A stretch of 6,508 bases of DNA from a virus (Duplodnaviria > Heunggongvirae > Uroviricota > Caudoviricetes). The stretch lies in IMG/VR virus record IMGVR_UViG_2698536450_000019; one strand, 5' to 3'. Shown in pieces: positions 1-3,000 of the stretch. The position numbers are program-made. Every line of letters starts with the position of its first letter. Positions within the stretch are counted from its first letter, which is position 1.

Positions 1-3000
1 TCAATAAATCCCATCATTGCGATCAACCTCATCCTTAACCATTGATGCGAGCAGTTCTTCCAGTTTCTGCGCTGACAGCTTTACCTGGTGATCTTCAGCA
101 TCTTCCCGGGCTATTGTGGTTCGCGCAGTGGCTGATTTTGCTGACATCACCACAGGGGGCAGACGGACCATTGAACCATGGCCTCCGGAACAAATAAGGG
201 CAAAAATAACAACCACTATCGAAAGCTCACAAACTAACCGCAGCACGTTCCTGCATACGACGTGTCTGCGGCATAATCCCAATGATTACTCCCTGACAGG
301 GTTTGCAGGCCACTCAATATCAGGTGCAGTTGATGTATCAACACGATTCAACAATACCCGATATTTATTCCATGCCTCCAGCAACGATCTTTCTTCCTCC
401 GTTGCGATTTCCAGATCTACAGCATCCTGCAGTGGCGCAATATACTCACTGAATTCCTGGATGTAGAACTGTGTGGTGACGGTCTTCCAGCCATTCGGCT
501 CCTGCTGTATCGAAGCATACCAGGCTATTTCAATATCGCTATGCTGCGGCAGCATTTAACCCCTTGTAATTCATCGCCATAATTGATTTAATTCACAAAT
601 AAAACTATAACATGGTGAAATCAATGAAAAAAAACACAGATGATGGGGCTAAAATTTACACACCACTTACCCTAAAGCTTTATGACTGGTGGGTTTTGGG
701 AGTATCAAATCGGCTTGCATGGGGATGTCCTACAAAGGAACACCTTCTTCCACACTTTCTGGAACATGTAGGTAACAACCATCTGGATATTGGTGTTGGA
801 ACTGGGTTTTACCTTACTCACGTACCTGAGAGTAGTCTGATATCTTTAATGGATTTGAACGAAGCTAGCCTGAACGCGGCATCTACAAGGGCTGGGGAAT
901 CAAAAATTAAACATAAAATTAGCCATGATGTTTTTGAACCTTATCCCGCGGCGTTACATGGTCAATTTGATTCCATTTCCATGTTTTACCTTCTTCACTG
1001 CCTGCCTGGAAATATATCTACAAAAAGCTGTGTAATACGCAATGCGGCGCAGGCCTTAACTGACGATGGAACTCTATACGGAGCCACAATTCTTGGCGAT
1101 GGAGTTGTGCACAATAGCTTCGGTCAAAAACTGATGCGCATTTACAATCAGAAAGGCATCTTTTCAAACACAAAAGATTCCGAAGAAGGCTTAACACATA
1201 TACTCTCAGAGCATTTCGAGAATGTTAAAACCAAGGTTCAAGGTACTGTAGTAATGTTTTCCGCTTCAGGGAAAAAATAGCATCCAACCGCAGCACGTTC
1301 TTGCTTAAGACGTGCTGCGGCATAATCCCAATGATTACTCCCTGACAGGGTTCGTAGGCCACTCAATATCAGGTGCAGTTGATGTATCAACACGGTTCAG
1401 CAACACCCGATACTTTTTCCAGGCTTCCAGCAATGAGGTTTCTTCCTCCGTTGCAATTTCCAGATCTGCAGCATCCTGAAGCGGCGCAATATGCTCACTG
1501 GCTACCTGCATCAGGTTGTTTTTTGTTTCTTCCGCCTCCCGGATCCGGAACAGTTTTTCTGCTTCCGTATCCTTCACCCAGGCTGTGCCGTTCCACTTCT
1601 GAAACTCCCCTTCCGGCGATAACCAGGTAACATTTTCCGGTAACGGACCGAGTTCAGAAATAAATAACGCGTCGCCGGAAGCCACGTCATAAACCGTTTT
1701 ACCCCGATGGTCTTCAAAGAGATGCCACGATGACTCATCACTGTTGAAAACAGCCACGAAGCCTGCCGGAATATCTAACGGTGCAATATCGGTACTGTTT
1801 GCAGGCAGACCTGTATGAGGCGGAATATATGCGTCACCTTCACCAATAAATTCATTAGTTCCGGCCAGCAGATTATAAATTTTTATGGTCCGTGGTTGTT
1901 CACTCATTCTGAATGCCATTATGCAAGCCTCACAATATAGTTAAATGCGATGTTTTTGACGGTGTTTTCCGCGTTACCAGCAGCGTTAACGGTGATGGTG
2001 TGTCCATGTGAACCAATCGCAACGGAGTGCGCATGAGCACCAATTGGAACAGAGTGCGCATGGTTACCTGTAGTGCTTGTGGCACCAGACCAGGTTCTGG
2101 AAGCGTTAAAGTTTACAGGAACACCATAAGTAAATTGAGAGCCCGTAAATCCATGGGCTGGCGCAGAGCCACCCAGTGTAAATGCTCCACTTGCTGTATA
2201 GAAATTACCGCTATCACTTCTGAAGTAACCGAGAGTACCGGTAATTTCCATAGTGCCTCGGCTGTGGTTATGGTCACCAGTGGCATTTGAAGACTTAGTA
2301 CCATAATCAAACGACGACGTGGTTTTCGTCCCCAAATCCGTACTGGATGCACTGGCGCTGTGGGTGTGCGATTTAATGCCGTCCTGTTCCTGAGATAATA
2401 CGGCCCGACCACTGGCAGGTTTGCCCTTAATCGTCCAGCCACGCATATCAGGGATCACGCCTGACGGATAAGCAGCTGCAAGTTTCGGGTAAGCAGATTT
2501 GTCAAAAGTCTGCCCCTGCATCAGGGCATAACCAGACGGAACGGTATCTGATGGCCACGGGATTGGTGCGCCAGGCGGATAAAACTGCTCTGATGGCGTA
2601 TAGAGTGAATAAACTGTACCGTCCGTTAACCCTTCCGGCTTATTAGCAGAATATGCTGGTGACGTATGAATCGTCACGCTGGCATTACTGGTATAATCCC
2701 ATTGAATATTTACACCAGTCGCATAATTTCCGATTGCAACGTAAATATCGTAAGTATCACCAGATGTATTGACCCAGGCAAAATTTGTAAACCCTGTCGA
2801 TGTGCGCTGCCATAAAGCACCAGTAATCCCCTTCGGATTACCATTACCTGCACGCAAAACAAGTTCAGATATACCTGCCTGTTGAGGTGAACCGACGTTA
2901 AATCCAGCGCCACCAATCAACGTAATTGAAACAACAGAACTCGCCTGTGGCATGGTTACCGTTGCTAATTTGAACCAACCAGCACCACCGCTGAATGACA

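Follow-up and report, generated by a model that had tools for sequence, protein, structure and literature searches.

How does a gene come to lie between two diverged copies of its neighbour's end? The question is raised by a stretch of 6,508 nucleotides (nt), hereafter the window, from the IMG/VR virus record IMGVR_UViG_2698536450_000019 (Caudoviricetes), in which an intact tail-fibre assembly gene, tfa, is followed by a methyltransferase gene on the opposite strand and then by a second, partial tfa end in the same orientation as the first. A first-pass annotation of the window had read this as cargo brought in by homologous recombination between tfa alleles of two phages, and had proposed the tfa terminus as a modular exchange point for accessory genes. 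We favour, with a probability of about 0.7, a cassette of the moron type, that is, an autonomous unit between genes that are adjacent in related phages, which sits between tfa and a terminator hairpin with an adjoining box and spread via the homology of the tfa ends. The arrangement is not new: it is common and already annotated as tfaD-ybcY-tfaX in the DLP12 prophage of Escherichia coli K-12.

Two diverged tfa ends and the unit between them

The intact tfa gene (1335-1919, minus strand) encodes 194 amino acids (aa) of the lambda Tfa type; its DNA is 93.6% identical to lambda tfa, and its match to the Pfam family Caudo_TAP (PF02413; E 2e-44) is full-length, spanning profile positions 1-130 of 131. 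The repeat finder paired the end of this gene with a distal copy in two blocks, 266-462 with 1315-1511 (197 nt, 89%) and 236-264 with 1286-1314 (90%). Global alignment of 236-452 against 1286-1501 gave 195 identical positions out of 217 (89.9%) in the same orientation, with one 1-nt indel, located in the hairpin, and the homology breaks off sharply at 235/236 and at about 452/453, in line with the two co-oriented, roughly 90% identical segments of the first-pass annotation. That annotation had also described each segment as the last 55 or so tfa codons with a hairpin after the stop, and the Pfam profile and the hairpin positions agree. The proximal repeat (1286-1501) holds the last ~55 codons of the intact gene and its hairpin; the distal repeat (236-452) holds a hairpin and the 3' fragment of a divergent tfa allele, the counterpart of K-12 tfaX, which the Prokaryotic Genome Annotation Pipeline (PGAP) labels 'incomplete, missing N-terminus'.

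The 55 codons common to both copies contain 11.5 synonymous and 7.5 non-synonymous differences, giving 0.38 synonymous (dS) and 0.062 non-synonymous (dN) substitutions per site and a dN/dS of 0.16 (Fisher p = 2e-4). Because they diverged mostly at synonymous sites, the repeats come from two functional tfa alleles and not from a recent duplication; with an enclosed cassette that is 98-100% identical across thousands of genomes, this upholds the earlier argument against a target-site or recent tandem duplication. The longest perfectly identical block shared by the repeats measures 39 nt (307-345, partner 1356-1394) and recurs as a mosaic boundary, as described below.

Unique, AT-rich DNA with an opposite-strand methyltransferase gene separates the repeats, as had been noted: GC content is 0.33-0.46 across 526-1275 against ~0.47-0.53 in the tfa and stf flanks, a base composition unlike that of the surrounding phage genes. 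The gene (612-1280, plus strand; K-12 ybcY, phrog_2132) encodes a class I S-adenosylmethionine (SAM)-dependent methyltransferase of 222 aa, with Pfam bit scores above the cut-offs (in brackets) for Methyltransf_12 at 37.5 (30), Methyltransf_23 at 29.0 (27), Methyltransf_25 at 27.7 (27) and Methyltransf_11 at 24.6 (21.2). Its PHROG match spans residues 5-222 and M5 is invariant among homologues; the true start is probably the second ATG, at 624, which would give 218 aa. An AlphaFold2 (AF2) model with a mean predicted local distance difference test score (pLDDT) of 88 has an alternating strand-helix core, and Foldseek matched it to many SAM methyltransferases (E 1e-11 to 1e-9), the nearest solved folds being a bacterial phosphatidylethanolamine N-methyltransferase (the top match), juvenile-hormone acid methyltransferase (JHAMT) and phosphoethanolamine methyltransferases. 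A sequence search of the PDB gave marginal matches only. The Pfam matches of the gene include no DNA-methylase family, and the open reading frames (ORFs) of the window include no endonuclease gene; judged by its predicted fold, the enzyme is of a small-molecule or lipid type and not a DNA methylase. In Enterobacter and Salmonella, homologues with 56-65% identity occur as single chromosomal genes.

Upstream of the gene, two promoter candidates, TTAACC-16-CATAAT (556-583) and TTGATT-17-TATAAC (583-611), match the consensus no more often than expected by chance. The second corresponds to the promoter TTGATT-17-TATAAC in the ybcY/tfaX spacer of K-12, where an in vitro peak of RNA polymerase sigma-70 in systematic evolution of ligands by exponential enrichment (SELEX) and an H-NS site were reported (PMC3946193). 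The literature that we found on ybcY/tfaX consists of promoter-mapping papers, with nothing on the repeat structure. With its low GC, terminal hairpin and predicted promoter and terminator, the methyltransferase unit fits the definition of a moron as far as sequence features go.

Both hairpins begin ~15 nt past a tfa stop. The distal one (238-271) is 34 nt long with one bulged base; the proximal one (1288-1320), a perfect 33-nt stem, begins 7 nt past the methyltransferase stop and so stands between the convergent methyltransferase and tfa genes. The hairpin pattern had no occurrence in 200 shuffles of the window, and folding z-scores ranged from -2.2 to -4.4 against shuffled controls. Related loci were collected from IMG/VR by a scan for this pattern and then mapped with tblastn. 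The 34-nt type is the one seen after uninterrupted tfa genes, and in this hairpin-selected, and thus biased, sample the 33-nt variant occurs only beside the methyltransferase. In the 33-nt form the bulge is gone and loop changes add CTT/AAG pairs, and the RNA of the plus strand folds at -25.4 kcal/mol, against -18.8 kcal/mol for the common 34-nt form; it may be a strengthened terminator between convergent genes.

Adjoining the distal hairpin is a box of ~22 nt (214-235), which reads CCACTATCGAAAGCTCACAAACTAA in the window and GCACTATCGRAAGTTCACCAGCCAA in most phages. It is the commonest left flank of the hairpin among the IMG/VR loci, and a match at 90% to the lambda b region covers 214-272. 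Read on the tfa strand, the box would supply the U-rich tail of a predicted terminator (terminator-like call, minus strand), and the hairpin is probably a terminator between the convergent tfa and methyltransferase transcripts. The common box form on the tfa strand (for example at loci L066 and L084 and at lambda 24196-24220) is TTGGCTGGTGAAC and includes GCTGGTGA, a Chi-like octamer one base away from the Chi octamer GCTGGTGG; this octamer is not in the window's own copy of the box (TTAGTTTGTGAGC).

Origin and spread of the cassette

The distal repeat is part of an 89-aa ORF (286-555, minus strand) that PHROG and Pfam resolve into ~36 codons of a phrog_3893 gene (residues 3-37 match) fused in frame to tfa codons ~139-194 (286-451), with residues 29-87 matching tail-fibre-assembly families of PHROG. 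Since only Caudo_TAP positions 75-130 of 131 are covered and 1-74 are missing, the ORF is a fragment and not, as a gene, a member of that family. Its 5' part, which the earlier annotation had called unrelated, is indeed unrelated to tfa but is not random, its first ~36 codons belonging to the phrog_3893 gene family. No longer parent was found among 5.8e9 proteins, the search turning up only the chimera itself or read-through variants; the parent surfaced only through the context of a 90%-identical methyltransferase in Citrobacter freundii.

This homologue lies at a C. freundii prophage end whose DNA is 92% identical to the window over 469-1292 only, with neither tfa relic nor hairpin. The stretch carries a complete 79-aa gene that is divergent from the methyltransferase and belongs to phrog_3893 (E 7e-38), and dinI comes next. 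Its match, together with the GC content of 0.33 and the consensus scan, marks 452-611 of the window as imported non-tfa DNA that combines the phrog_3893 5' part with an AT-rich region of divergent candidate promoters. Plasmid and insertion sequence (IS) contexts in Salmonella match only 555-1286 of the window. Direct comparison revealed 5-6 nt of microhomology at each joint, GCTCA at 451/452 and ACCGCA at 1286-1292. The Citrobacter cassette, which comes with neither tfa relic nor hairpin, shows that neither primary joint is a homologous one and that the 89-aa ORF is chimeric. It follows that the cassette was not made by homologous recombination. Its origin would instead lie in illegitimate recombination, for which we infer the order of events.

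The proposal that homologous recombination between tfa alleles brought in the cargo accordingly does not account for the origin. With that amendment it is supported, for the spread: one cassette is found on varied tfa alleles and ends that change at conserved blocks, as exchange between tfa alleles would predict. The same cassette and distal-type relic coding are joined, left of the 39-nt block, to at least four continuations: the natural hairpin and box, as in the window; an in-frame alternative tfa end (reading IEWPTSPAE up to the stop) with a different terminator, at three loci (L019, L020 and L037), where homology stops at ~308; unrelated DNA from 309, in K-12; and unrelated DNA from 331, in O145, PhiR26_1 and Turner. 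A 'pure foreign' distal allele suspected at L020 and L037 was an alignment artefact: to the left of the 39-nt block these loci have the alternative tfa end and terminator. At the opposite flank of the cassette, the adjoining functional tfa varies in allele and has patches of alternative states while the cassette stays constant, and in many phages the proximal tfa is cut to 32-39 codons beside unrelated tail-fibre genes. Exchange of this kind has been measured in stf-tfa between lambda and Rac or Qin, where it is Red-dependent, tolerant of divergence and occurs at ~2e-6 (De Paepe et al. 2014, PMC3945230).

Frequencies were counted in 5426 complete E. coli genomes. Methyltransferase DNA is present in 3836 of them (71%) at 4882 places, up to 4 per genome and all at least 95% identical. 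The distal tfa relic is attached to it in 3442 genomes, the proximal hairpin and tfa end in 3118, and the full layout of window 1-2000 is found in 1113. Viable phages carry the cassette as well: PhiR26_1, PhiR29 and PhiR30 have the order J-lom-stf-tfa-methyltransferase-relic-hydrolase-ompT, and 2G7b, ev243, Turner and Kati also have it. The unit is likewise present in O145:H28 E. coli.

The K-12 counterpart in DLP12, tfaD (ybcX)-ybcY-tfaX (ylcE), has tfa, the opposite-strand methyltransferase and the tfa C-terminal fragment in the same order, and strain ER1821R of K-12 carries the same DNA at 96.8% identity over window 309-1773. In K-12, however, all three are pseudogenes: tfaD is cut by a deletion that extends as far as the terminase gene, ybcY carries a frameshift and tfaX an internal stop, and the distal relic is without its last codons, hairpin and box, with appY and ompT coming next. 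The window, by contrast, keeps tfa and the methyltransferase intact and retains the distal hairpin and box. An eroded remnant of DLP12 type lies at the argU site of uropathogenic E. coli strain 536, with ompT, a ~95% variant of the methyltransferase, a tfa fragment, an integrase fragment and tRNA-Arg; there the distal relic is deleted and ompT stands directly before the methyltransferase.

'Empty' sites, without the cassette, had been proposed as a check. A chimeric probe that could be covered only by an uninterrupted tfa-hairpin-flank sequence found them in 20 E. coli genomes, where tfa, hairpin and the 1-235 flank are contiguous, nearly all at the same ompW position. In these tfa ends the hairpin and the last codons resemble the distal copy and the sequence further upstream the proximal one. 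The same switch is seen in methyltransferase-free tfa alleles at large (13 unique, lambda included), which are distal-like at 236-306 and proximal-like at 346-452 (Fisher p ~1e-16), and it fits a crossover in the 39-nt block. A deletion by crossover between the repeats might seem to be proved by the 'hybrid' end at the empty sites, but we rejected this reading: the pattern recurs in lambda and in other alleles without the methyltransferase, and the empty-site tfa genes differ from that of the window by 4-5%.

The history that we favour would begin with the import of ~452-1290 from a prophage module that held a small phrog_3893 gene and a divergent small-molecule SAM methyltransferase with its promoter region. 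At one joint, DNA just past the methyltransferase stop would have fused to the tfa terminator hairpin through 5-6 nt of microhomology; at the other, codon ~36 of the small gene would have fused to codon ~139 of a second, divergent tfa allele, whose 3' end, hairpin and box would survive as the dead relic known in K-12 as tfaX. The outcome would be a cassette between ~217 bp of direct tfa-end and terminator homology. Homologous recombination, by RecA or by a phage enzyme of the Red/Rad52 type, between tfa alleles of co-resident lambdoid phages or prophages could then move the cassette to new phage backgrounds, swap the adjoining functional tfa and stf, or delete the cassette.

Several points weigh against this history or limit it. 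Homologous exchange at the tfa ends, although supported as the explanation of later spread and replacement, is deduced from sequence comparisons. The Citrobacter module is a 92% relative rather than a proven progenitor. The empty-site tfa genes, which differ by 4-5% from that of the window, look like ordinary uninterrupted alleles, and a derived, strengthened 33-nt hairpin combined with a divergent distal allele would explain the allele switch equally well. The U-rich tail lies on the tfa strand, and the methyltransferase strand has no clean U-tract after the hairpin. Finally, the frequencies from the IMG/VR scan are biased, since the scan used the hairpin pattern.

The alternative that survives best, possible though clearly less probable, makes the distal tfa fragment the scar of an earlier replacement of the tail-fibre module and not a by-product of the arrival of cargo. 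A new stf-tfa unit, with or without cargo, would have been joined illegitimately upstream of the old chaperone's 3' end, deletions would have trimmed the DNA between, and the methyltransferase would already have been a moron in a b-like region, whether the incoming or the resident one. A second, unrelated tail-fibre relic just beyond the first (1-189) agrees with such accretion, as do the non-homologous nature of both primary joints and the position of the Citrobacter module, which is flanked by a 367-aa gene (cut at the contig end, without a recorded family match, perhaps a tail gene) and by the prophage end, dinI and cdiI also lying in this interval. In phages of the 2G7b type, moreover, even the proximal tfa is a 39-codon relic beside unrelated tail-fibre genes. 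Accretion, however, leaves room for homologous spread at a later stage, and what sets it apart is chiefly the order in which the events took place. Moreover, 90% of methyltransferase-positive genomes, and several prophage types, have the distal relic together with the cassette, a linkage across contexts that is expected of a single unit and not of an independent local scar.

The hairpin and box as the border of a cargo slot

If the tfa terminus is a modular exchange point, the same slot should hold other cargo in other phages. It does: between tfa and the box and hairpin we found the methyltransferase cassette, ea47, an EcoRII pair, a MASE4-GGDEF cyclase, a Pin invertase (of Rac/Qin type) and a 239-aa protein without a family match. 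For most of this other cargo, however, the fixed landmark is the hairpin with its ~22-nt box and not tfa coding sequence, and to that extent the proposal needed correction. In the IMG/VR scan and tblastn maps the box and hairpin mark a point near the prophage end; at 10 loci nothing lies between them and tfa, and at 35 the box and hairpin are followed directly by non-tfa DNA. A second, Tfa-based scan with one genome per species returned mostly lambda contamination and few Escherichia or Shigella loci, and was used only for the Rac, Qin and att-lambda examples. Its loci L133-L147 and L152-L169 have lambda tfa (94% identity) in assemblies from Pseudomonas, Shewanella, Bradyrhizobium, Streptomyces and other unrelated taxa, some on contigs of ~48.4-48.5 kb, as long as the lambda genome, which looks like contamination with lambda control DNA.

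Lambda itself offers the closest parallel. Like the methyltransferase of the window, its ea47 gene is cargo convergent with tfa and bracketed by two direct hairpins, the one that follows tfa at 22573-22606 and a second copy at 24162-24195 (NC_001416). The second copy (918-951 of the extracted lambda locus L008), in the b region, is 100% identical to the distal hairpin of the window and has the same ~22-nt box adjoining it, and in the tfa-end copy (2507-2540 of L008) the stem is kept through a compensatory C-G to A-T change. Unlike the window, lambda has only the ~34-nt hairpins as repeats, 82% identical to each other, with no relic of tfa coding sequence, and its cargo is unrelated, ea47 having no Pfam family.

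At locus L066, on a prophage contig from IMG/VR, a complete EcoRII-type pair (~8600-13240), matching DNA_methylase (C5 cytosine) and EcoRII-N/C, stands between tfa and the box and hairpin, and four loci (L148, L084, L021 and L042) hold a 443-aa MASE4-GGDEF protein there. In the first of these the GGDEF gene is at att-lambda, beside ybhB/bioA. Richter et al. placed dgcX at two chromosomal sites, att-lambda and, in strain SE11, beside uspF-ompN (PMC4287979). The uspF-ompN site is the Rac end, and our locus there (L132) carries pin and not the GGDEF gene. If the GGDEF gene is dgcX, for which its site makes it a candidate, then dgcX would lie inside the prophage and not beside it, and dgcX and ea47 would share the slot of ybcY. 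In O157:H7 strain Z570 (L180, 5139-7960), an operon like yciG-yciF-yciE and a manganese catalase gene are stacked between tfa and the methyltransferase's hairpin; there an ISEc8 interrupts the region beyond the tfa relic.

One could therefore suppose that the hairpin is an attC-like or otherwise structure-specific recombination site, at which cargo is swapped by a dedicated enzyme and not by general recombination. Cargo boundaries do fall repeatedly at the hairpin, including the methyltransferase joint at 1286-1292, two direct copies bracket ea47, the hairpin separates the stacked cargo in O157:H7, the 35 loci with non-tfa DNA directly behind box and hairpin point the same way, and the compensatory change keeps the lambda stem paired. 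We nevertheless regard this as improbable. No recombinase is consistently linked and none is in the window, nor is an integrase; the lambdoid Int acts at attP and, in phages that have it, lies ~2-4 kb away from the cassette, with ~2.3 kb between its end and the tfa relic; the arms CCGCAGCACGT/ACGTGCTGCGG lack, on direct reading, the integron core GTTRRRY; each cargo unit ends on its other side without a hairpin (at tfa codon 139 in the window and at different sequences in other units); and a conserved terminator suffices to explain the conservation of the structure.

Less probable still is a role for the 89-aa ORF as a short but working Tfa-like chaperone or regulator under selection, which would make the distal repeat a gene and not a relic. 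The ORF is open in the window with its fusion in frame, the chimera is common enough to have its own PHROG family (phrog_2341), and its sequence is uniform, 29 of 35 copies being identical at diagnostic sites, but this uniformity is the same as that of the whole young cassette. The ORF has an internal stop in K-12, is split in phage 2G7b and, in the DLP12/ompT context, leaves the tfa sequence at 331 and ends in unrelated residues; it is broken or runs into unrelated DNA in K-12, O145, PhiR26_1 and 2G7b, PGAP calls it a pseudogene, and the first 74 positions of the Caudo_TAP profile are absent. It is probably not functional.

The least credible reading starts from a tandem duplication of the tfa 3' end in place, or from a mobile element that left a long target-site duplication, and lets the copies diverge afterwards. 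Although direct and flanking an insert, the repeats are 217 nt long and 10% diverged, and their dS of 0.38 and dN/dS of 0.16 indicate divergence under purifying selection as working genes, around a cassette of at most 2-5% diversity anywhere. The window ORFs include no transposase, the repeat finder detected no terminal inverted repeats on the insert, and 217 bp is far above known target duplications.

Prophage setting and relation to known systems

The window corresponds to the right end of a lambdoid prophage of E. coli. Every large gene but one is on the minus strand, in the order of the end of the lambda late region: J, lom, stf and tfa. Beyond tfa come the methyltransferase, on the plus strand, the tfa relic and the second tail-fibre relic. 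In E. coli 042, which is 99% identical over window 1-2062, this prophage right end is inserted in ompW, beside yciE and the trp operon, and adjoins truncated ompW/yciE.

Named from the ORF list and the annotation of relatives, the remaining genes (all on the minus strand) are the C-terminal part of the tail tip protein J (5405-6508), which runs off the window; lom (4740-5337), for an Ail/Lom outer-membrane protein; and the side tail fibre gene stf (1919-4588, 889 aa). The lom gene is a pseudogene here: compared with the intact gene in E. coli 042 and phage PhiR26_1, it has a 2-nt deletion near 5180-5185 and is split into ORFs of 56 and 147 aa. Within stf, 3260-4220 is a long Ala/Ser/Thr-rich stretch of diverged repeats with spacings in multiples of 21 nt (repeat-finder families D2-D7). 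At the other end, 1-189 is the 3' relic of another tail-fibre-related gene, annotated by PGAP in the identical region of 042 as a DUF4376 pseudogene with an internal stop, and matching phrog_7703 (E 8e-15) and phrog_1141 'tail fiber protein' (E 2e-10); the flank with this relic is common to the empty sites, where it is contiguous with tfa.

Some annotations of the locus call for caution. A search of NCBIfam returned no family for tfa, the tfa relic or the methyltransferase. A 45-aa PGAP ORF at 1225-1362 (minus strand), named 'hypothetical protein' or, in K-12 strains, 'nucleocapsid protein', extends from the 3' end of the methyltransferase gene across the hairpin and over the tfa stop, and looks like a spurious call. 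The Rfam small RNA (sRNA) family IS009 (RF02111) matches 1378-1576 (minus strand) at 225 bits, above its gathering threshold of 117, and the distal copy, 329-532 (minus strand), at 112.5 bits, just under it. Both matches fall on sense-strand DNA of the tfa gene or its relic, so that the family is probably a model of tfa sequence and not of an independent RNA gene. Here the 89-aa 'tail fiber assembly protein' (phrog_2341), the 45-aa ORF and the IS009 matches are best taken for artefacts that tfa relics cause in annotation.

The finding belongs to a kind that is already known: a moron in a hot spot beyond the tail-fibre genes, spread by relaxed homologous recombination, as part of ordinary phage mosaicism. 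The exchangeable effector loci of lambdoid prophages in enterohaemorrhagic E. coli (EHEC), reportedly described by Tobe and colleagues in 2006, are such cargo hot spots beside tail-fibre genes. Z/fun of P2 is another (bioRxiv 10.1101/2024.10.15.618418). Both resemble the window in having a hypervariable accessory slot just beyond the tail-fibre and assembly genes, and the neighbours of the cassette, an alpha/beta hydrolase and ompT or, in O157:H7, a stress operon, match this picture; they are described at the level of gene content, whereas the box and hairpin landmark and the tfa-end repeats are a finer structure. Like the morons of lambdoid phages (Juhala et al. 2000 and Cumby et al. 2012, as cited in the same preprint), the unit in the window has an atypical composition, a predicted promoter and a terminator-like hairpin and lies close to the prophage end, in the late region. 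Flanking repeats are not part of the definition of a moron, however, and this one is flanked by ~217 bp of direct homology to the end of its neighbour gene, which gives the cassette a ready route for transfer and loss by general recombination.

The 'linker' sequences of the modular theory and relaxed recombination (De Paepe et al. 2014) likewise use a conserved sequence at a module border as the crossover point between diverged phages, although no cargo bracketed by a duplicated tfa end features there, and crossovers that were measured in that work are inferred from comparisons in ours. Invertible tail-fibre segments (Pin/Gin/Cin/Min) share with the window a second, partial tfa/stf copy near the functional one, and Pin occupies the same slot in prophages of Rac/Qin type. 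In the window, by contrast, the copies are direct and not inverted, and no invertase ORF is present; since the second tfa copy also has no matching stf end, no switching is possible.

For the biology of these prophages, the box and hairpin provide a convenient marker for the slot that receives cargo at the right end of lambdoid prophages in E. coli. More speculatively, and we think this rather unlikely as a general principle, the tfa 3' end and its terminator (hairpin and box) might act as portable homology arms, so that a gene between two copies becomes a 'natural recombineering cassette', moved by recombinases of the Red/Rad52 type between otherwise unrelated lambdoid phages. If true, this would account for the presence of a single methyltransferase cassette in 71% of E. 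coli genomes and in several prophage types, and the ~60-nt box and hairpin would be a general, searchable landmark for phage cargo such as ea47, EcoRII, the GGDEF cyclase and stress operons. The cargo itself is a methyltransferase carried by that same large share of sequenced E. coli, with nearest folds, by its predicted model, among lipid and small-molecule enzymes. The locus thus offers a dissectable example of a host-derived gene becoming a widespread phage passenger, in which microhomology joints would build the cassette and the duplicated end of a neighbour gene would spread or remove it.

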